From assembly GCA_019459085.1 (NCBI GenBank), contig JAIBEW010000034.1, forward strand, positions 18,767-82,766: DNA of 64,000 nt, given 5' to 3'. The notes under the pieces were generated by a model, which was given only the letters and a program-made list of their open reading frames with translations, was not told where the DNA came from and did no database searches. This DNA is from Kaistella sp. (GTDB lineage: Bacteria > Bacteroidota > Bacteroidia > Flavobacteriales > Weeksellaceae). This document shows, piece by piece, positions 12,404 through 51,876 of the stretch. The translations under genes and the position numbers were made by a program. How positions within the stretch are numbered: position 1 is the first letter of the stretch; each line of letters starts with the position of its first letter.

Positions 12404-12690
12404 GAGCCAGGGCAAAAGTGTTCCGTAAAATGTAAAAGTAAAATGTACAGAAAGTTTCGTGGCTGCAGATAGTGCTGATTTTGGGATTTGTGCAATTTGT
12501 GTAAATATTGGTGTCCTTTGTTTGCGAGGAGGAGGTGGTCCCTGAGCGAAGTCGAAGGGAACGACAACGAAGCAATCCCCTCTCGGACTCCGATGCTTTA
12601 TTCAGACCGCAATTTTTTTGTGCAATTGGTGTAAATATTGGTGTCCTTTTGTGTTTAAGAAGGTATGAGTAAAGAACAAAGAGACAAGAC
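12404..12690 (+). repeat. composite intergenic element, copy I (modules A-B-D-C-D-A')
   Basis: Collinear with 17199-17527 and 18214-18488. Order: gagccagggcaaaag words, gtaaaatgtaaaag words, the tgtgtaaatattggtgtcctttgt module, the 90-nt C module, then aaagaacaaagaga words. Confidence 0.8.
12522..12612 (+). repeat. C module copy 1 (ttgcgaggaggaggtggtccctgagcgaagtcgaagggaac...gaagcaatccc...ttcagaccgc)
   Basis: About 94% identical by eye to 18297-18387. Flanked by 34-nt direct repeats at 12488-12520 and 12617-12650. Confidence 0.8.
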
Positions 12691-12693
12691 ATG

Positions 12694-12719
12694 ACCGCAG
12701 ATTTTTCTGCGGTTTTTTT
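12694..12719 (+). terminator. Rho-independent terminator (probable nrdA terminator)
   Basis: The stem accgcag (12694-12700) pairs with ctgcggt (12707-12713). Loop is attttt and a T7 run follows. Confidence 0.65.
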
Positions 12720-12920
12720 GTGTTTTTCCCCGTGTTCTGTGTAAATTCTCCGTGCCCTCTGTGGTTAAGAAGAGCAAGAGATGGTAAGCCATACGCAGGA
12801 GTTGATAACTAGCGTCCCAGCCTAAAGCATATAAGCCTAAAGCCAAAATGTCTGTGGTTTTTTATACCTTTTCTGTGTGCTCAGTGTGAATTCTTTTGTG
12901 TTCTCTGTGGTTAAAAGGTT

Positions 12921-15817: not shown

Positions 15818-15825
15818 TAAATTTG
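15818..15825 (+). promoter_or_regulatory. Bacteroidota -7 box (TAaaTTTG) upstream of glyA
   Basis: Matches TAnnTTTG about 105 nt upstream of the glyA ATG. No clear -33 element was seen. Confidence 0.25.
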
Positions 15826-15880
15826 AAACTCCAAATCTGATGGGGGATTTCTACAGTTTGACATCACATATTTGGCACCA

Positions 15881-15930
15881 ACATCAGACATCCAACACGA
15901 AACATCCAACACCTAACACCCAACATTTAA
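15881..15930 (+). repeat. CA-rich G-poor heptad leader abutting the glyA start
   Basis: Reads acatcag acatcca acacgaa acatcca acaccta acaccca acattta, then a-ATG. Confidence 0.75.
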
Positions 15931-17199: not shown

Positions 17200-17527
17200 A
17201 GGCAAGAGGCAAGAGCCAAGGAAAAAGGCAAAAGTAGAAAGGATCTGTACAATGTAAAAAGTACAATGTAAAGCTGCTCCTGCGCAAAATTCAACATCGT
17301 CTTTGCGAGGAGGAGGTGGTCCCTGAGCGAAGTCGAAGGGAACGACGACGAAGCAATCCCATCTCGGAATCTGATGATTTATTCAGATTGCTGTTAATTT
17401 GTGTCCCTTGTGTAAATATTTGTGTTCTTTGTGGTTAATAGAGCAGTTGGGAATAAAGAATAAAGAGGAAAGAACAAAGAGAAAAGGCAAAAGAGCCAAG
17501 TAAAAAGTAAAAGGTAAAGAGGCTTCG
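17199..17527 (+). repeat. composite intergenic element, copy II (A-B-C-D-A'), 47 heptads in one phase
   Basis: See the findings. It starts inside the glyA TAG stop codon. Confidence 0.8.
17303..17392 (+). repeat. C module copy 2
   Basis: About 92% identical by eye to 18297-18387. Confidence 0.8.
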
Positions 17528-17643: not shown

Positions 17644-17651
17644 TAATTTTG
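17644..17651 (+). promoter_or_regulatory. Bacteroidota -7 box (TAatTTTG) abutting the heptamer array
   Basis: Matches TAnnTTTG and ends 1 nt before the CATCTAA array. A second match lies at 17586-17593. No clear -33 element was seen. Confidence 0.3.
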
Positions 17652-17713
17652 CATCTAACATCTAACATCTAACATCTAACATCTAACATCTAACATCTAA
17701 CATCTAACATCTA
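17652..17713 (+). repeat. perfect tandem heptamer (CATCTAA) x 8.9
   Basis: Eight perfect copies span 17652-17707, followed by the partial copy catcta. There is no G in the 62 nt. It ends 1 nt before the GTG start of recX. Confidence 0.95.
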
Positions 17714-18213: not shown

Positions 18214-18488
18214 AGAGCCAAGGAAAAAGAAAAAGGATCATGTAAAATGTAAAAGTACAATGTAAAGGTGCTTCTGCGTAAAATTTGGCAGCGTCTTTGC
18301 GAGGAGGAGGTGGTCCCTGAGCGAAGTCGAAGGGAACTTCGACGAAGCAATCCCATCTCGGACTCGGATGCTTTATTCAGACCGCAATTTTTTGATGCAA
18401 TTGGTGTAAATATTCGTGTTCTTTGTGTTTAAGAGAGCAGTTGGGAATAAAGAGAAAAGAACAAAGAGAAAAGAAAGAAAAGCAAAAA
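18214..18488 (+). repeat. composite intergenic element, copy III (A-B-C-D-A')
   Basis: Collinear with 17213-17500 over its whole length. Confidence 0.8.
18297..18387 (+). repeat. C module copy 3
   Basis: ttgcgaggaggaggtggtccctgagcgaagtcgaagggaacttcgacgaagcaatcccatctcggactcggatgctttattcagaccgc. Confidence 0.8.
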
Positions 18489-18530
18489 GGGGTGTTTAAG
18501 GTAGGCTTTTTGGTGATGGTTTTTTTTACA

Positions 18531-18554
18531 CCGGTGCGATGCGCCGGTTTTTTT
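18531..18554 (+). terminator. Rho-independent terminator after recX and its composite element
   Basis: The stem ccggtgc pairs with gcgccgg (one G.U pair). Loop is gat and a T7 run follows. Confidence 0.55.
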
Positions 18555-18908
18555 GTGGCAAAAACGCTGTAGAATAGCTGTTCACATTCGGGTAATAAAG
18601 GGCTTTAAAATATGATGTTAACTTAACATAATTATTTTCTTTACACTTGATTTTTTGTATAATTTTGCTTCTGGAATTCAGCATGATTTTTGCTGGTAAA
18701 GCACAGAGGGTTAATTCATTAGGAAGATACCCCTTTATAGAATTTTCATAATTTCCCGCGTTCTGCTGTGTTTCAGTGTACCGGAAATTGATGGAGGTTT
18801 CAGTGCTTTAACGATAGCACCGGCTAATGATTTTGAATGGTTTTGAGGGAAGCGCTGAGAGGTCTCCATGCGCACCCTTAATAAGAATTGATACAAAAAA
18901 ACAAACAT

Positions 18909-21900
18909 ATGAAGACAAAACAATTTTCTTTTCTAAAACAGGCTCTTGCCTTAGTGATGGCATTCTGCTCCGTATTCATGTGGGGACAGACGGTCTGGAC
19001 CTATGATTTTGGAACAGGAACAGGAACATTTACATCAAGCACGGCTTCTACCAGTTTTTTACCGGCCCCGCAATCAAATGGAGGAACAGCTAGAGTAAGG
19101 GTCGGAACAAATCCTGGCAGCATTATTTTAGCCAATCCGGGACTGGCTTTGGGAAGTGGCAGTGAAATGCAATTTAAAACCAATTCGGGGAGTACGTCTA
19201 CTACAAAATTTTCCATTTATGATTATACTGCATCTAAAGCCGGTTATTTCAAAGCGAACGTAACCTTAAATGGCGGAACTACAGGGGTGTATAATCTCAT
19301 GATAGGAGATGGCGCTAATTTTTCAGATAACAACGCAATAGCTAACGCACAGGTATTTGCGGGACTACGCCTTACATTTGGTGCTTCCAACAGTATTTCC
19401 ACGGCAGTTTTAAGTAATGCCACATGGGTGACCACAGGCTTAACCAATGCTTCCACACTTTTTGCCCAAAGCGACACCAATATATATGCAATTGAGATTT
19501 ATTATAATAATACTACAACTCCAACTTCTTACGAAAGAAGTGGGTCCAATTCTCTGACAAATGCTACCTGGGATTTGTGGGTAAACGGAACAAAGGTAGG
19601 GACAGGTCTTGCAAAGGGCGCTTTCGGAACAAATCTAAATGTCGATTCCTTTGCTTTGAACCATCAAATTAGCGTGGCCGCAGGTACACAGGGTACGGTT
19701 TATCTGGACGATCTCGAGTATTCCAACGGTTTACCTGCTGTAGCCACCCCTACCATCTCAAGTATGCCTACCTCACTCAACGGATTCACCTACGTTCAAG
19801 GTGCTGGTCCTTCAACGGAACAAAGTTTTTCCGTGACGGGTTCCAATCTGTCGGCTTCTATTGATGTGAGTGCATCTGCAAACTGGGAGGTTTCACTGGC
19901 TGCAGCTTCAGGATACGCCAATGCGGTACAGCTTCCTGCTACAGGAGGTACCGTGTATACCCGACTGAGCGCAGGCTTAACGGAGAACCCAACCTATACC
20001 GGGAGTATAACACTGGCCAGTACCGGTGCAACCGATGTTACGGTGAACCTTTCCGGGTCGGTAACTGCTCCGCCTGTTACGCCTGTTGTGACCGGTGCAT
20101 CGCTAAACGGTACAGTGGGAACGGTATTTTCTTATCAGATACAGGCTACAGGAACGCCCGATTCCTATGCAGTATCTACCGGAACCCTGCCCGCAGGACT
20201 CTCGCTGAACACAACGACCGGTTTAATCTCCGGAACCCCTACGGCTGCAGGAAACGTGAGCGTGGACGTTACCGCTACCAATGGCGCCGGGACATCGGTG
20301 CCTGCGACGCTGGATTTCACCATTGCACAGGGTACCCAGACGGCGGCGCTGCCTGATCTTACCCCGAGTGTAGGTGCCTCGGCGATCACTTTGCCGGCCG
20401 CCACGAATGCCGGCCTCACGATTACCTATATCAGCGATAATCCTGCAGTAGCTTCCGTTTCCGGAAACACGCTTACCGTTGGAAACACCGGAACCGCAAC
20501 CGTAACCGCGAGCAATGCAGGCAACGCAGATTATACCGCATTTAACGACACCTTTACGGTGACCGTCACCAATCCGCCGGTGAGTATTCTGGAGTTTGAT
20601 TTTGCAGGGATTGCGGGAGATGAAGTTTCTTTCGGATCTTCTACAAATGCCACGGGCTTAGAGGCTTCAGTCATTACGAGAGGAGCCGGCCTTACCGCTT
20701 CCACCAATGCTGACCGCTTCAATGCCATCAACTGGGCTACTACTTCCATCGCCAATGCGGTGTCCGGTAACGATTATATGGAGTTTACCGTTACGCCAGG
20801 TTTGGGTTATCAGTTCAGCGTTTCAGCCATCACCTTTCAGATTCAGCGTTCAGGCACGGGATTAAGTGCTGTTGCTTTACGAAGCTCTGCTGACAATTAT
20901 GCCGCCGATCTTGACGGGCAGAAGACTGTAACCGATAATACCGGAACCCAGGCCTTTACATTCAACTTTATCCAGGCTGATTCTACAGGTCCAGTAATAT
21001 ATCGACTTTATGGTTATTCTGAAGCTGCAGGCGGATCGGCCGGTATCGGAGACTTCACCGGAAGCGACCTTACCATCACCGGAAATGTAACCGTGGATCC
21101 TGCAAAAACCGTATGGGCAGGTTCTCCCGGAGCATGGACGAACGGTACACCGGTGGCAGGTCTGCAAGCAATCATCGCAGCAGACTATGCTGGTACCTCT
21201 TTCGAATCCCAATCCCTAACCGTGAACACCGGCTTTACCCTTACGGTAAATACTTTCGTGAAGACGGGCGATGTGGAGAACAACGGCAACATTACGGTGG
21301 CCAATAATGCCAATTTTGTGCAGACCGGAAACTTTACCGCAGGCACGGGTTCAGCCTTTAAGGTATGGAGAGACACAAAACCGGCAAAACGGCTGGCCTA
21401 TATCGGATGGAGCAGTCCCCTCGAAAGTGCTGCCCAGACCCTGAAAGCGTTTTCGTACGGAAGACTGGCCGACGGCGTTACACCACAGTCTGCCACCGGA
21501 ACGGTCGATAATCGTTTCCTGACGTATAACAATGAAGTGTTTGTCTCTACACCGGCTACCGGAACGTTTACACCTGCAGGAAAAGGGTTTCAGATCCGGA
21601 CTCCGAATGATTTTACGACCACACCGCAGGTCTTCCACGGTTTGTTTGAAGGCAGCAAACCGAACTCCGGAACCGTGAACTATGACCATTCCGGTATTAC
21701 CGGTGACTTCGTGCTGCTGGGGAATCCGTATCCAAGTGCTATTTCGGTGCAGGAATTTCTGAATGCAAATCCGGGAACCACAGAAACTGTATACTTCTGG
21801 AACAGTGAAGCTGAAATGGATGTGAACGGCCAGTACACCGGCACGAACTATAATACCTATGCACCGGGAACAGGAGCTGTGCCCCTGAATTCGGTGAACG

Positions 21901-22682
21901 GATATATTCCGGTTGCGCAGGGCTTCTTCGTGGAGCGTGGTACTGCAGCCACTCCTATTGTGTTTACCAATGCGATGCGACAGACTACCGAAACTGGGAT
22001 ATTCAGTAAAGCCCCCGCAACGGATAAGTTCTGGCTTCAGCTGAATACAACGACCGGTGCCGCCCCTCAGATGCTTTTCGCCTTCAACAGCGCGGCGACT
22101 GCCGGTATCGATGCCGGATATGATGCCAAAATGCTCGACAGCAATACCGAATCGCTGTATACGAAAGTCGGCACCGAAAAACTCATCATTGATTCACACG
22201 GTGCTTTCCAGAATACCGACCACTTCGATGTTTTCCTGAATACCAACACTGTGCGGAACTATACCGTTTCGCTGCTGCACGGCGACGGGATCTTTGCGGG
22301 TTCTCAGGCCATTTACCTCCGCGATAAAGTCACCGGCACGTTCACGAACCTGAGTACGGGAAGCTACAGCTTCACATCGACAGGTACAGGCGAGGAAAAC
22401 CGTTTTGAAATCCTTTTCCAGCCCCAGTCGATACTGGGTACTGCGGAAACCGTAAAAGATGAGGTCATCATCTATTCTGCCGGAACCAACGTTCATGTAA
22501 AGTCAGCGGAGAAAATAAGCCGTATAGAACTCTATGACCTGAGCGGAAGGCTTTTAGCGGCATCCAAAGGAAATGCCCGTACCGAAATGACCATTGCAGT
22601 CAACTATACAGGACCTGTTTTGGTGCAGGCAGTACTGATGAACGGTAATGTAGTGAGGAAGAAGGTGATGGTGGGTGAATAA
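18909..22682 (+). CDS. large T9SS-sorted cell-surface protein with Ig-like repeats
   Basis: The ATG at 18909 yields a signal peptide (MKTKQFSFLKQALALVMAFCSVFMWGQ). An Ig-like segment is present (PAGLSLNTTTGLISGTPTAAG), along with a Big-like segment (NPAVASVSGNTLTVGNTGTATVTA). The C-terminal ~80 aa (ISRIELYDLSGRLL...VVRKKVMV) resemble a type A T9SS sorting domain. Confidence 0.8.
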   Translation: MKTKQFSFLKQALALVMAFCSVFMWGQTVWTYDFGTGTGTFTSSTASTSFLPAPQSNGGTARVRVGTNPGSIILANPGLALGSGSEMQFKTNSGSTSTTKFSIYDYTASKAGYFKANVTLNGGTTGVYNLMIGDGANFSDNNAIANAQVFAGLRLTFGASNSISTAVLSNATWVTTGLTNASTLFAQSDTNIYAIEIYYNNTTTPTSYERSGSNSLTNATWDLWVNGTKVGTGLAKGAFGTNLNVDSFALNHQISVAAGTQGTVYLDDLEYSNGLPAVATPTISSMPTSLNGFTYVQGAGPSTEQSFSVTGSNLSASIDVSASANWEVSLAAASGYANAVQLPATGGTVYTRLSAGLTENPTYTGSITLASTGATDVTVNLSGSVTAPPVTPVVTGASLNGTVGTVFSYQIQATGTPDSYAVSTGTLPAGLSLNTTTGLISGTPTAAGNVSVDVTATNGAGTSVPATLDFTIAQGTQTAALPDLTPSVGASAITLPAATNAGLTITYISDNPAVASVSGNTLTVGNTGTATVTASNAGNADYTAFNDTFTVTVTNPPVSILEFDFAGIAGDEVSFGSSTNATGLEASVITRGAGLTASTNADRFNAINWATTSIANAVSGNDYMEFTVTPGLGYQFSVSAITFQIQRSGTGLSAVALRSSADNYAADLDGQKTVTDNTGTQAFTFNFIQADSTGPVIYRLYGYSEAAGGSAGIGDFTGSDLTITGNVTVDPAKTVWAGSPGAWTNGTPVAGLQAIIAADYAGTSFESQSLTVNTGFTLTVNTFVKTGDVENNGNITVANNANFVQTGNFTAGTGSAFKVWRDTKPAKRLAYIGWSSPLESAAQTLKAFSYGRLADGVTPQSATGTVDNRFLTYNNEVFVSTPATGTFTPAGKGFQIRTPNDFTTTPQVFHGLFEGSKPNSGTVNYDHSGITGDFVLLGNPYPSAISVQEFLNANPGTTETVYFWNSEAEMDVNGQYTGTNYNTYAPGTGAVPLNSVNGYIPVAQGFFVERGTAATPIVFTNAMRQTTETGIFSKAPATDKFWLQLNTTTGAAPQMLFAFNSAATAGIDAGYDAKMLDSNTESLYTKVGTEKLIIDSHGAFQNTDHFDVFLNTNTVRNYTVSLLHGDGIFAGSQAIYLRDKVTGTFTNLSTGSYSFTSTGTGEENRFEILFQPQSILGTAETVKDEVIIYSAGTNVHVKSAEKISRIELYDLSGRLLAASKGNARTEMTIAVNYTGPVLVQAVLMNGNVVRKKVMVGE

Positions 22683-22758
22683 GAGCCAGGAACCAAGAAT
22701 CAAGAGCCAAGGAAAAAGTAAAATGAGCCTGATAAAAAGGCGAAAGGGAAGGATGAAG

Positions 22759-22953
22759 GATGAGTGATGAAGTGGGGAAAAGTACGAAGTGGGAAGTGCG
22801 AATGACGAAAATGGAACCATGGAGGATGAGTGATGGAGTCGGGATGCGGAATGCCGGTTATGAGTGATGGGGGAAAAGTGCGAAGTGCGAAGTGCGAATG
22901 ACGAAATGGAAAGGATGAAGTCGGGATGCGGGATGCCAGTTATGAGTGATGAA
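22759..22953 (+). repeat. purine-rich imperfect tandem repeat, period about 100 nt ([X Y][X' Y'])
   Basis: X at 22759-22824 matches X' at 22859-22913 (gtgcgaa/tgacgaa words). Y at 22825-22869 matches Y' at 22914-22953 (gtcgggatgcgg(a/g)atgcc(g/a)gttatgagtgatg). Confidence 0.75.
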
Positions 22954-23010
22954 GCATGAGTTAGGAGGCTGGAACAGGATTTTAGAAGCGATAGTTGAAA
23001 GATTTTCAGA

Positions 23011-23137
23011 TTAAAAATTAATAATCCAAAATCCAAAATTAAAAATCCATTTCCTAACATCTAACCTCAAACCTCTAATCCCCAACACCCAGCATCCAGC
23101 ATCCAAACATTATCTAACAACAAAAACAAACAACATC
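23011..23137 (+). other. G-depleted CA/T-rich heptad leader abutting the start codon
   Basis: Only 2 G in 127 nt (at 23092 and 23099). Heptads include tccaaaa tccaaaa ttaaaaa tccattt cctaaca tctaacc tcaaacc tctaatc cccaaca cccagca tccagca tccaaac. Confidence 0.85.
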
Positions 23138-23398
23138 ATGAAAAAATTATATACAGCAGTTTTAGTAGCAGGATTTTCCGCTTTCGGATGGGCACAGGAG
23201 GAAATTGTGAATCCCTTTAAAAAAACCGAAGAACAGTATTATGCCTTTGAAGTAGCCCGTAACCCTGGAGCAGGCGGCGATCTTGGCGGCGATGACGCTC
23301 CGGCGGCGCCAATTGACAGCCCGGTGCCGTATCTGGTGGTGACGGGACTCATCCTCGCGGCATGGTATGGTAGAAGGAAGGTGGGAATGACGAAGTGA
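23138..23398 (+). CDS. small secreted protein with a PEP-CTERM-like (PID motif) C-terminal sorting signal
   Basis: 86 aa. Signal peptide MKKLYTAVLVAGFSAFGWAQ, Gly/Asp/Ala-rich linker, then APID-SPVPYLVVTGLILAAWYG-RRK (motif, TM helix, basic cluster). Confidence 0.6.
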   Translation: MKKLYTAVLVAGFSAFGWAQEEIVNPFKKTEEQYYAFEVARNPGAGGDLGGDDAPAAPIDSPVPYLVVTGLILAAWYGRRKVGMTK

Positions 23399-23480
23399 GA
23401 GGTGGGAATTACGAAGTACGAATGACGAAGTGGGAATGAGAAGCGCTGGAAGCTGGATGCTTGAGACTGAATACTGACCG

Positions 23481-24108
23481 CTGACCGCCGAACGCGAAAT
23501 GTTCCCAATCCAACTTCAGCACCGTCATTGCGAGGCGGAGATGGTCCCTGAGCGAAGTCGAAGGGAACGACAACGAAGCAATCCCGTCTTAAACCCCATT
23601 TATGCCCCTCGTGTCCCCCTTTGTGCCCTTTGTGGTTAAGAGAAGACAGAAATAAGAGCAAAGATCCCAAAAACGGGGTCCGGAATGAGGAAATGTAATA
23701 ATAAGTTAATATGGTCCCGCAAAATGGAGGTGGAAGCCAAACGCTGAATGCCGGGTCCGGAGCTTTCTTCGAATCCCATTTGTGTCCCTGGTGCCTCCCT
23801 TTGTGCCCTTTGTGGTTGGAAAGCAGGATGCTGGAAGCCGAAAGCTAAACGCTGACCGCCAACCGCCAAATGTTCCCAATCCCTCTTCACCACCGTCATC
23901 GCCAGGCGGAGGAAGGACAACGAAGCAATCCCGTCTTGAACTCCATTTATGTCCCTGGTGCCTCCCTTTGTGACTTTGTGGTTAAGGGAAAACAGAATAA
24001 AGAAAAAAGAGCAAAGATCCCAAAAACGGGGTCCGGAATGAGGAAATATAATAATTAGTTAATATGATCCTCGAAAAATGGAGGTGGATGCTGAACGCTG
24101 ACCGCCGA
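23481..24108 (+). repeat. tandem duplication of a ~260-275-nt unit, period 371 nt
   Basis: Unit 1 is 23481-23755 and unit 2 is 23852-24108. Both run ctgaccgcc...aaatgttcccaatcc...C-like core...gcaatcccgtctt...tttgtg(c/a)c(c)tttgtggttaag...aagatcccaaaaacggggtccggaatgaggaaat...ggaggtgga. A third D-like fragment lies at 23771-23817. Confidence 0.8.
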
Positions 24109-24234
24109 AAGCTAACCGCCTAAACAACTACACAACTCAACCTCTTAACAACTCAGCCTTCCACGACTGAACGACTCAACAACTGAACGACACCACGACT
24201 CAACAACTCACCACCCCCACAAAATTTCTTTCCA

Positions 24235-24266
24235 TTGCCTCCAAATCACTTTTTTCCTTATATTTG
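24235..24266 (+). promoter_or_regulatory. candidate Bacteroidota promoter for wza/wzc locus 1 (TTG-N21-TAtaTTTG)
   Basis: A -33-like aTTG lies at 24234-24237 and a -7 box TATATTTG at 24259-24266. The spacer is 21 nt. The box ends 20 nt upstream of the ATG at 24286. Confidence 0.45.
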
Positions 24267-50493: not shown

Positions 50494-50500
50494 GAGGGTT

Positions 50501-50556
50501 AAGAATCAAGAATCAAGAATCAAGAATCAAGAGCCGAGAGTCAAGAATCAAGAACG
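50501..50556 (+). repeat. tandem heptamer AAGAATC (4 perfect and 4 degenerate copies)
   Basis: Reads aagaatc x4 (50501-50528), then aagagcc gagagtc aagaatc aagaacg. It begins 8 nt after the DUF421 stop. Confidence 0.9.
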
Positions 50557-50570
50557 GTCAACTGAAGGCT

Positions 50571-50691
50571 AAGGTTAGGGAGGGATGCGCTGTGCTGGAT
50601 GCAGGAGGAGCAAAGAGCAAAGAGTCAGTACTAGGTCAAGGTTTAGGAGGGATGCGCAGTGCTGGATGCATAAGGAGCAAAGAACCAAGAC
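50571..50691 (+). repeat. 54-nt direct repeat, period 67
   Basis: 50571-50624 (aaggttagggagggatgcgctgtgctggatgcaggaggagcaaagagcaaagag) matches 50638-50691 (aaggtttaggagggatgcgcagtgctggatgcataaggagcaaagaaccaagac). Confidence 0.8.
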
Positions 50692-50833
50692 TTTGCTGGC
50701 TTATCTTCACCTTACCACCTTACCACATCGCTTTTGCCTAGCTTCCCACACGCCACATTACCACATTAGCAAATTATCTCATTACCCCATTTCCAACTTC
50801 GTAATTCGCATTTCGTCCTTCGTCCTTCGAACT

Positions 50834-51280
50834 TCATTTCACCGTCCCGTTTTGCTTTTCCAGTTCGGCCCTGAAGATCCTTTTTCTAAGGTCGCTCGAC
50901 GAAAACCGATGCGATCTTTTATTGTAAAAAATGGCAATTCCATTTTCTTCGCAGTACTGTTTACCGGTGAAATTCTTATCGCGGTAATCTTCCCCGATAA
51001 TGCGGATATCGATGATAAAAGATTTCAGGATGTCCTCGAGGTCTTCTTCAGCGTAGTAGCGAACGATTTCGTCCACTGCTGCCACAGCCTTCAGCTGAAT
51101 GTACCGCTCAATAATGGTCTGCGTCGGTTTGTTTTTATCCGGCCGGTCGTGCGACGGATCAATCTGCAGACCCACAATCAGATAATCACAGACGGTCTTG
51201 GCTTCTTCCAGCATTTTAATGTGTCCAGCGTGAAGCAGATCGAAGGATGAAAAAGTAATTCCGACAGTTTCTTTTTTCAT
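50834..51280 (-). CDS. cytidylyltransferase-family protein (TagD-like glycerol-3-phosphate cytidylyltransferase)
   Basis: 148 aa from the internal ATG (MKKETVGITFSSFDLLHAGH...). It has the HxGH motif FDLLHAGH and a C-terminal RSHRFSSSDLR resembling the RTxGISTT motif. Confidence 0.7.
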   Translation of the reverse strand: MKKETVGITFSSFDLLHAGHIKMLEEAKTVCDYLIVGLQIDPSHDRPDKNKPTQTIIERYIQLKAVAAVDEIVRYYAEEDLEDILKSFIIDIRIIGEDYRDKNFTGKQYCEENGIAIFYNKRSHRFSSSDLRKRIFRAELEKQNGTVK

Positions 51281-51876
51281 ATATTGTTTATCGAGTTCAA
51301 TAGGAGCAAATATATCATAAATTGTTGTACCCGACAATGAGTCACTATGTAGTAGATAGGAATAGGGCTTGTACCAGTTTTCCTCCAAGATCCTGCACGA
51401 AATGCGGTCGGTAACATTGGGTGAAAGAAAGCAATAAAGTGAAGATTAACTTAGAAGCTTAAGAATCAAGAGGTATCTTTTGATAAGGTAGCTGAGCGAA
51501 GTCGAAGAGCGCATGTTAAAATTTGCCATTTATTCAAAAAAAAGCAAAAAAAACAGCGGATTTTCTTATTTTTGTCAGATAGAGTGCTAAAAGGGATGTT
51601 GGTGTAGGAATTGTCTTTGGCACGGGCTTGGAAGTACAGTTGGAGTAGGGTGTTTGATATGCATACCATATGAGTTTGCTGCCGGATATCCGCATATTTT
51701 TTTTAACTTTCAAAAAATAGGGAAGCCGAAAGAAAGCGGAGAGTTCTTTACCAACGCTGCACATGAGTGGATGCCACTACGTTTTGAAGGTGCTGAACGA
51801 CCGATTTGAATCTCACTGCTTATGCAGATGCAGATACAGAAACAATAAAATTAAATATCAGTTATAAAAAAGGACA

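Follow-up and report, generated by a model that had tools for sequence, protein, structure and literature searches.

A mosaic of heptanucleotide repeats with an almost G-free, start-proximal tract in an intergenic spacer of Kaistella sp.

The 64,000-nt stretch of Kaistella sp. DNA analysed here (positions 18,767 to 82,766 of contig JAIBEW010000034.1, below called the window and numbered from its own first letter) contains, at 22683-23137, a 455-nt spacer lying between the TAA codon (22680-22682) of an open reading frame (ORF) of 1264 amino acids (aa) and the ATG (23138) of an 86-aa ORF, both on the plus strand. This spacer is a mosaic, in five parts, of degenerate arrays of heptanucleotide simple sequence repeats (SSRs), in which a purine-rich block is followed by an almost G-free tract. 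The block (22683-22975) is 74.4% purine, with 38% G, 36% A and 10% C, and reaches or comes close to the highest purine content in the window, about 4.5 standard deviations over the mean; the tract (23011-23137) holds 2 G in 127 nt (G 1.6%, C 30%), is the sole 127-nt segment of the 64 kb with six or fewer G and includes the longest G-free run of the window (82 nt). An earlier note on this DNA had reported both compositions, which were right when recounted, and had listed 33 successive heptads from 22878 to 23108, which proved exact to the letter on re-reading.

The periodicity analysis, performed as self-identity at a lag of 7 nt, gave values of 0.54 for 22683-22975, 0.62 for 23011-23137 and 0.57 for 22878-23108, versus 0.21-0.41 at lags that are not multiples of seven, with z-scores against shuffles of 8.9, 6.3 and 10.4, respectively; self-identity declines slowly at lags 14 and 21. 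The spacer thereby shows the two properties by which an SSR array was recognised, head-to-tail copies of 7 nt and a periodicity above chance for its composition, the latter being judged against shuffles, while the formal length threshold for long simple sequence repeats (LSSRs) is a genome-wide one. Tandem Repeats Finder (TRF) reported period-7 rows at 22681-22711, 22748-22772, 22780-22802, 22876-22898, 22922-22936, 23023-23049 and 23054-23078, with short perfect runs of at most 3.3 copies. The periodicity and the composition flip are therefore real and statistically solid, and it is the description of the spacer as one continuous walk, in a single register and up to the start codon, that has to be corrected. 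Only 21 of the 32 pairs of neighbouring heptads at 22878-23108 have at least 4 of 7 bases in common, likeness drops at 22899-22919 and again at 22962-23003, where the drop coincides with the composition flip, and periodicity ends at about 23108, the final 29 nt being A/C-rich and non-heptadic. Since similarity lapses exactly where the composition changes, a common register of the purine and G-free blocks, which would arise by chance in one case out of seven, is not demonstrable.

The five parts can be described in turn. Module 1 (22683-22750, plus strand) begins at the stop codon and is a copy of a dispersed post-stop repeat built from the words AAGAATC, AAGAGCC, AAGGMAAAAG and TAAAATG, with a consensus containing ...AAGAATCAAGAGCCAAGGCAAAAGTAAAATGTA...; eight copies could be aligned (alignment A2) at about 58% mean column identity, and a sequence model matched 22681-22750 with an E value of 3.7e-10. 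Its core, AAGAGCCAAGGMAAAAG, has 11 matches in the window, all on the plus strand, where 0.03 would be expected, and the module begins at or just past the stops of nrdA, a DUF72 gene, glyA, recX and the gene for the 1264-aa protein, being found also inside long spacers. Exact copies of the core occur in three further genomes (L001, L002 and Cruoricaptor L010; numbers preceded by L denote the compared relatives throughout). Module 2 consists of two tandem higher-order units of about 96 nt on the plus strand, copy A (22759-22872; families D1 and D3, alignment A1, lag-7 blocks), with the purine-rich heptads GATGAGT, AAGTGCG, AATGACG and GGGATGC, and copy B (22855-22961; alignment A1), which includes (AAGTGCG)3.3 at 22876-22898 (TRF, 100% matches). 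The two copies differ by a 14-nt indel, i.e., two heptads, and by another indel of 4 nt, and a third copy of the word set (23376-23470, plus strand; alignment A1, family D1) overlaps the 86-aa gene at its 3' end and stop codon. We also observed that the purine block (22723-22956) holds 21 ATG and 10 GTG triplets in less than 300 nt, mostly in GATGA and AATGA words, an estimated threefold excess over the expectation from composition; if transcribed in an organism that initiates without Shine-Dalgarno (SD) sequences, these would be potential decoy starts.

The flip itself lies in a non-periodic linker (22962-23003, plus strand), in which neighbouring heptads match at 0-3 of 7 positions, except for one 5/7 pair at 22990, and which contains TTG 22995, the last start-type codon upstream of the real ATG. 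Module 3 (23004-23108, plus strand), delimited by composition, lag-7 identity and comparison of heptads, is made of C/A-rich, G-free heptads that pass from TTAAAAA/TCCAAAA to TCTAACC and then to CCAGCAT; this last part matches arrays of other species (L073, L086, L088, L091/L092 and L096), and the reverse complement of its words is present at 23815-23834. The remaining 29 nt (23109-23137, plus strand) form a non-periodic, A/C-rich translation initiation region with A at -3, -6, -12 and -13, ending in the same three nucleotides (atc) that make up the whole gap between the two genes in a relative. Start-type codons (ATG, GTG, TTG) are absent from the 143 nt before ATG 23138, and RNA of 23011-23160 has a minimum free energy (MFE) of -0.7 kcal/mol, compared with -32.0 +/- 7.9 for 300 random 150-nt windows. 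The four A residues, the low pairing and the lack of a nearby AUG are the sequence features of SD-less initiation regions of Bacteroidia.

Searches for known signals in the spacer returned little. The TAnnTTTG -7 box of the Bacteroidetes sigma-A promoter was not found on the plus strand of 22683-23137, even with one mismatch (the sole match in the spacer, 23034-23041, is on the minus strand), a sigma-70 promoter scan of the same segment gave nothing, and it contains no intrinsic terminator of the type of a GC-rich hairpin followed by a T run, hairpin and T-run sequences being visible by eye in other spacers, e.g., at about 12694-12720 and about 18528-18560. As neither promoter nor terminator is recognisable, the spacer probably belongs to a bicistronic mRNA, as the RNA between its two cistrons. 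The whole window had no match to Rfam 15 at gathering score, and no plasmid similarity was found. An origin from a transposable element of the miniature inverted-repeat kind or another transposon was considered and rejected: there is no inverted-repeat pair in the spacer and no target-site duplication at its borders (TAA|gagcc ... caac|atc ATG), and module 1 is its sole dispersed part. The minus-strand ORF 22554..23060 (168 aa), which overlaps the end of the large gene, has no NCBIfam match and corresponds to the complement of the arrays, which is pyrimidine-rich; it was therefore taken to be spurious.

Two explanations can be weighed on these data. In the first, the spacer would act through a non-B DNA or RNA structure, i.e., a G-quadruplex, an i-motif, H-DNA formed by the purine tract or the pairing of its G-rich with its C-rich half into a long hairpin, an idea encouraged by its polarity, which equals that of the G-quadruplex-forming GGGNATC repeats (PMC4692102), and by the likeness of the reverse complements of right-block units to left-block units (TGCTGGG versus TGCGGGA). 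It is largely refuted in silico and we consider it highly improbable, given that the spacer has no (G3+N1-7)x3 G3+ motif, that is, no four G3 tracts with loops of up to 7 nt, and two C3+ runs only, that long-range pairing of its halves is no better than in shuffled sequences (z +1.30, with 91 of 100 dinucleotide shuffles folding at least as well) and that no Rfam family matches 22500-23500 even at E<=1. In the second, the G-free tract would be a rut-like site that loads Rho on read-through, an attenuator or insulator setting the transcription that reaches the small gene and the polysaccharide-export genes, with the C-poor purine block resisting Rho. The hallmark of a rut site is C-rich, G-poor, unstructured and untranslated RNA over at least some 80 nt, and by composition the 127-nt tract would qualify (C 30%, G 1.6%, MFE about 0); it is part of 455 untranslated nt without an intrinsic terminator, upstream of wza/wzc. 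Nevertheless, Rho action is here a prediction from composition, the tract adjoins a start codon in an optimal context, where translation would be coupled quickly, similar arrays occupy short 5' untranslated regions (UTRs) of the housekeeping genes glyA and recX, in which termination would be costly, and many start-proximal units are A/T-rich and not C-rich, so that this explanation also appears improbable.

The genes that border the spacer indicate how it arose. Upstream, the 1264-aa surface protein (18888..22682, plus strand) has a He_PIG Ig domain and a type IX secretion system (T9SS) C-terminal sorting domain (Pfam, NCBIfam), and over its C-terminal 534 aa it shows 67-69% identity to the gene preceding the small gene in L115-L117. 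Downstream, the 86-aa protein (23138..23398, plus strand) comprises a signal peptide, a linker rich in Gly and a C-terminal tail of the form APID..P, transmembrane segment, RRK; it matches a hypothetical protein from a Kaistella sp. metagenome-assembled genome at 100% identity, and an exhaustive HMMER search revealed 12 full-length relatives of 77-89 aa with 38-62% identity, which share (alignment A3) the signal peptide, a PGxGG linker and APIDDYxP with a membrane helix and an RKK tail after it. ATG 23138 is therefore a real start codon, as the earlier note had assumed when placing one at the end of the G-poor tract. The C-terminus of the small protein is similar to a C-terminal sorting signal of the exosortase type; the family is not covered by any Pfam or NCBIfam model, and in relatives the small gene is always found 3-18 nt past a very large surface-protein gene, often adjoining glyA or wza. 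The 86-aa protein had no relatives in a metagenome search, a contig look-up by the exact sequence of the window's own protein had no record, and a metagenome scan with recX gave no contig of the same species; glyA of the window is at most 91% identical to that of other Weeksellaceae.

Among all relatives with a readable contig, the upstream gene encoding 1308-1410 aa where its full length is on record, the gap between the large and the small gene is 3 nt in L115-L117, 6 nt in L118 and L119 and 18 nt in L120 and L121; counted by relative, it is 3, 6, 6 and 18 nt in four of them. The junction reads TAA atc ATG in L115-L117 and TAA gagcc...caac atc ATG in the window, and by parsimony the short junction is ancestral, so that about 452 nt would have been inserted or expanded in the lineage of the window. 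The spacer is thus, on this parsimony argument, a derived and lineage-specific insertion or expansion inside a conserved cassette of two genes, for the large surface protein and the small secreted one, that are tightly coupled elsewhere. Both genes are missing from the recX-wza interval of L001, the closest genome, which hence offers no direct orthologous spacer.

The layout of the spacer is repeated elsewhere in the window, in which period-7 density is 36.8 bp/kb (4.3 or less for other lags) and the 15 period-7 segments, making up about 22% of non-coding bases, are all at or in spacers once ORF 50585..51250 is counted as spurious. The 100 nt before the start hold 12 G and 29 C at glyA, 8 and 26 at recX and 6 and 34 at wza, and in the 100 nt after the stop G exceeds C for all eight stop codons tabulated, with a ninth case read from the sequence on the minus strand of the convergent spacer 50494-50833. 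The compositional switch is therefore reproduced at other spacers within the window (8 stops and the glyA, recX and wza starts). At glyA, a CCAACAT-type G-poor array (15876-15930, plus strand) lies between the conserved -7 box TAAATTTG (15818-15825) and the ATG; the box (TAAATTTGAA) is conserved, and the distance from box to ATG is 105 nt here versus 43 nt in L008 (Kaistella yonginensis) and L002, a difference that includes the array. A perfect (CATCTAA)8.9 array (17652-17713, plus strand) fills the interval between the -7 box TAATTTTG (17644-17651) and the GTG start (17715) of recX; its 63 nt make it the window's second-longest run without G, and it is a possible site of copy-number variation. 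The G-poor tract of wza (24112-24218, plus strand), with period 8/24, lies upstream of the promoter, because the -7 box TATATTTG (24259-24266) sits between the tract and the ATG. The recurrence claimed earlier for glyA and wza, and partly for recX, was thus confirmed as regards G-poor sequence before all three genes, with the qualifications that the period at wza is 8 and not 7 and that recX shows the layout in full, not in part.

Both genes that face each other across the convergent spacer (50494-50833) have purine-rich heptads behind them on their respective sense strands, with (AAGAATC)n on the plus strand and ACGAAGG/GCGAATT words on the minus strand; the real right-hand gene is a minus-strand cytidylyltransferase gene (50834..51388, Pfam). 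The plus-strand ORF 50585..51250 (221 aa), which overlaps that gene, extends across repeat arrays, matches no family and was rejected as spurious. Purine-rich, C-poor post-stop words are a habit of this genome: the earlier note's claim of such words after stop codons holds for the window, and a general rule was discarded when relatives gave 32 versus 29 spacers and 11 versus 8 units. Further repeats were seen in the vicinity, including a tandem duplication of about 350-370 nt at 23450-24077, in the long spacer separating the 86-aa gene from wza (families D4-D7, 81-89% identity), and a second dispersed intergenic element with an exact 26-nt core, GGTCCCTGAGCGAAGTCGAAGGGAAC, found in four copies (12537-12562, 17318-17343, 18312-18337 and 23543-23568), all on the plus strand where 0 would be expected, with a related copy near 23880-23930. 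This core sits in copies of about 130 nt (TTTGCGAGGAGG...CGAAGCAATCCC...), and a similar element, GTCCTTGCGAGGAGGCGG..., follows arrays in L115 and L116.

Comparison with other Weeksellaceae showed that such arrays are predominantly non-coding (922 periodic windows in non-coding and 95 in coding DNA, for the window and 80 glyA loci) and unevenly distributed. Period-7 density across the 80 loci is high in a minority (80 bp/kb in L001 and 84 in Epilithonimonas bovis, together with L002, L021, L073, L080, L071, L007 and L003), a few genomes lying at 37-84 bp/kb and most Chryseobacterium at 0-10, while Chryseobacterium sp. MP_3.2 (L018) has period-8 instead of period-7 arrays, at 85 bp/kb. Directly before recX the array units are (CATCTAA)9 here, (TTCATCA)3 in L114, CTAACTC-type in L100 and (AACTATC)3 in L022, with (AACCTY)n hexamers in several relatives, e.g., L084, L086, L088, L094, L095 and L018; despite these different units, all are G-poor on the sense strand and reach the start codon. 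In the six relatives just named, and in L082 and L083, the G-free (AACCTC/AACCTT)n arrays, in the 80 nt before the gene, were seen to reach a TTG start of recX.

In many Chryseobacterium a perfect heptamer array fills the interval from a conserved -7 box, TAACTTTG, to the ATG of a FAD-type oxidoreductase gene, with units of ACTATCA, ATTATCA, ATCATCA, ACAATCA or AATAAGC in about 4-17 copies depending on the species. From their sequences, these arrays evolve in concert, change their copy number and are predicted to be placed in the 5' UTR. They were noted about 100 nt before the MENKNFDVIIIGGSYSGLSA gene in L045, L052, L050, L061, L063, L043, L069, L057, L040, L053 and L075, and just upstream of the box there is a conserved, palindrome-like ttattgcaac...attgcgttaat. 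Length changes by whole units were observed as the 14-nt indel of module 2, as indels of 28-29 nt inside G-rich and C-rich heptad arrays between L115 and L116 (two assemblies of one relative species) and as these copy-number differences in Chryseobacterium. In L115 (2813-2960) we additionally found the intrinsic terminator of the operon followed by G-rich heptads (GGGGAGN) and then C-rich ones (CCGCCAA/CAGCCAA), the same flip in one spacer. Arrays of this kind shift by whole heptads, turn over fast and are polar near start codons.

Such variability could suggest a contingency locus, phase-variable or rheostat-like, in which a change of copy number would lengthen or shorten the leader and so adjust how strongly the small gene is expressed. 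The perfect, copy-number-variable arrays between -7 box and ATG in Chryseobacterium spp. and at recX here would qualify on sequence, the 28-nt indels between strains of one species pointing in the same direction. The arrays of the spacer itself, however, are degenerate, with at most 3.3 perfect copies, for which low slippage rates are expected, and heptamer changes in a non-coding leader switch no reading frame, which makes this explanation very unlikely for the locus. A further proposal, that a protein binding single-stranded nucleic acid (bS1, an RRM protein or one with a cold-shock domain) uses the 6-7-nt units as tandem sites and so regulates translation or stability of the adjacent gene, would be in line with the ATC..AA / CATC core common to start-proximal units of many species (AACATCT, AACATCC, AACTATC, AATCATC, AACCATC) and with the suggestion by MacGregor (2015) that S1, Csp or Csr binds TAACTGA repeats beside starts, CspB binding heptamers with one protein per unit (PMC4679880). 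We regard it as improbable too: the units are very diverse, a G-free, A-rich alphabet by itself makes words look alike, the tract switches words every 2-4 units, and no candidate protein came to light.

The reading which we prefer, with a probability of roughly 0.55, is that heptamer arrays made by slippage were inserted at an operon junction and filtered by selection for an unstructured, AUG-free leader in SD-less Bacteroidia. It is supported by the polarity of arrays located up to 100 nt upstream of starts. In the window and the 80 loci, with genes in the relatives crudely called as longest ATG ORFs and loci that are phylogenetically non-independent, 45 of 52 such spacers have fewer G than C on the sense strand (p 7e-8); leaving out the window gives 43 of 49. 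A stricter detector applied to 122 loci gave 34 versus 8 for period 7 and 14 versus 1 for period 6, non-repetitive upstream DNA being only mildly G-poor. Of the distinct units, 3 have start-type codons solely in the sense and 14 solely in the antisense orientation (p 0.013); selection for stop codons in every frame was considered as well and dismissed, the units that contain stops numbering 5 in sense only and 9 in antisense only. Where a -7 box can be recognised, the arrays are mostly between box and ATG, as at glyA, recX and the Chryseobacterium oxidoreductase. Initiation in Flavobacterium johnsoniae relies on low structure together with A at -3, -6, -12 and -13, and AUG is depleted near starts, which offsets the missing SD pairing (PMC6847099). 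The idea of the earlier note that the G-free tract is a leader is partly upheld, by polarity, structure-free RNA and start-codon avoidance, but the lack of a TAnnTTTG box in the spacer means that it is probably intercistronic rather than a 5' UTR with its own promoter, and the tract of wza lies upstream of a promoter.

Under this selective reading, arrays would gain or lose 7 nt, or a multiple of it, at a time through unequal recombination or slipped-strand mispairing, a process that is partly shown and partly deduced; point mutations would let them decay into a series of related words, and larger blocks would be duplicated, like the two units of about 96 nt, or copied between spacers, like module 1 and the CCAGCAT words. 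Selection on the transcribed spacer RNA would then fix the orientation of the words, and G-poor ones alone would persist beside the start codon, because a G-free leader excludes AUG, GUG and UUG, SD-like GGAGG and folding. Being unstructured and A-rich, it would let ribosomes load internally and start at the first AUG, the translational coupling still possible across the 3-nt gap of a relative now being lost.

The most substantial competitor is that the arrays are neutral filler, selfish or accidental products of slippage whose polarity stems from mutational asymmetry linked to transcription or replication, or from copying of pre-oriented modules between co-directional spacers. Their sporadic distribution, the fast turnover of units with indels between strains and the degeneracy of the arrays in the spacer all agree with this, and as nearly all genes at 9-50 kb are on one strand, copying alone could co-orient arrays. 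On the other hand, in the convergent spacer polarity tracks each gene's own strand, independent period-6 and period-7 units before recX are all G-poor on the sense strand, distinct units avoid start codons (3 versus 14), and the G-free tract is the most G-depleted and least structured segment of the 64 kb; neutral filler is accordingly possible, though we think it doubtful.

Several observations weigh against selection for an SD-less leader, the first two of which filler would readily accommodate. Collapsed by distinct unit, the bias towards fewer G than C falls to 17 versus 7 (p 0.06), and G-poor words occur upstream of the -7 box at wza, and at glyA in L008, where a leader role is impossible. 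Start-proximal arrays of period 8 have no strand bias (13 versus 12), the relatedness of the loci and the crude gene calls may affect these counts, the purine block has no role in the leader model, and transcription of the spacer is deduced solely from missing promoter and terminator motifs. Xanthomonas and Nostoc, moreover, are bacteria that we take to use SD sequences. Their heptamer repeats have the same polarity (PMC4692102), so an SD-less explanation is not the whole story, and a broader cause could play a part, for instance avoidance of G-rich structures in leaders, Rho-related effects or mutational asymmetry.

A bolder extension of the selective reading is that G-free arrays of 6-7 nt are evolvable ribosome landing pads, i.e., positively selected leaders or intercistronic pads, free of structure and start codons, for SD-independent internal initiation, with a slippage-prone length acting as a heritable rheostat of expression, in Weeksellaceae and perhaps in other SD-less Bacteroidia. 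This is speculative and rather unlikely; if true, a gene could remain expressed after an insertion of hundreds of bases at an operon junction that was once coupled. No agreed function has emerged for intergenic heptamer repeats in the years over which they have been catalogued, and the locus is a clean natural experiment in a phylum with ribosomes that ignore SD sequences, since a gene pair that is 3-18 nt apart elsewhere is separated here by 455 nt of repeats. The different G-poor units in orthologous leaders (recX), together with variable perfect arrays in culturable Chryseobacterium, provide a tractable system for studying repeat orientation and length in SD-independent initiation or Rho action, and should these prove irrelevant, a well-documented case of polar, fast-evolving junk would remain. 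For annotation, it is of value that the spurious ORFs 22554..23060 (minus) and 50585..51250 (plus) stem from arrays with few stops, and that assemblies may break there.

The class of repeats to which the spacer belongs has been described several times. The short tandemly repeated repetitive (STRR) sequences of cyanobacteria are heptamer repeats. Heptanucleotides are also the most abundant prokaryotic LSSRs (units of 5-11 nt), which Mrazek, Guo and Shah (2007), as summarised in PMC4679880, ascribed to slippage. The arrays described here share with both classes the head-to-tail, mostly 7-nt units, the concentration in non-coding DNA, the sporadic phylogeny and polymerase slippage, but they are mostly degenerate mosaics of many units, with higher-order units of about 96 nt and a dispersed post-stop module mixed in, whereas LSSRs are long perfect runs. 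Mosaic elements of the BIME/REP type (bacterial interspersed mosaic elements with repetitive extragenic palindromes) likewise consist of recurring spacer modules in fixed orientation to transcription after stop codons. The spacer resembles them in its oriented mosaic of modules after stops and differs in having no palindromic REP core and in the heptad periodicity of its modules.

Closer in polarity are the GGGNATC / GGGGA(C/T)T repeats of Xanthomonas and Nostoc, whose G-rich strand is coding within 50 bp after stops and non-coding within 50 bp before starts (Rehm et al. 2015, PMC4692102). The same polarity was found here, and a possible overlap with stop codons, a location mostly between co-directional ORFs and the lack of a link to mobile elements are also in common; in contrast, the Xanthomonas and Nostoc repeats follow a single consensus, occur preferentially as four units and have been shown to form a G-quadruplex, while the units of the spacer are heterogeneous and without a G-quadruplex motif, and its start-proximal block is A/C-rich and not simply the complement of the post-stop block.

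Elizabethkingia anophelis presumably belongs to the same family as the organism of the window. Larger assemblages of heptamer repeats have been reported in this species and in Gramella and Aequorivita, the same junctions lacking repeats in relatives, as part of work on the TAACTGA direct repeats of Beggiatoaceae, cyanobacteria and some Bacteroidetes, which are placed a few nt upstream of starts in fixed orientation and without a canonical ribosome-binding site (MacGregor 2015, PMC4679880). Proximity to starts, fixed forward orientation and absence from the same junctions of relatives recur at our locus, although that work concerned one unit, for which horizontal spread and a specific regulator were proposed, whereas here there are dozens of units and no TAACTGA in the spacer. 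With the SD-less initiation regions of Bacteroidia (Baez et al. 2019, PMC6847099) the spacer shares A at -3, -6, -12 and -13, low structure and the lack of AUG near the start, but the known features extend from about -20 to +20, whereas the spacer keeps out G, structure and start codons across some 130-140 nt built from tandem repeats. In conclusion, judged by its sequence, the spacer is a new member of the already described class of heptamer SSRs and ordinary in kind, its link to SD-independent initiation being plausible; what is new is the extent of such arrays in Kaistella and other Weeksellaceae, their insertion into an operon junction, their avoidance of start codons and the near-absolute exclusion of G.

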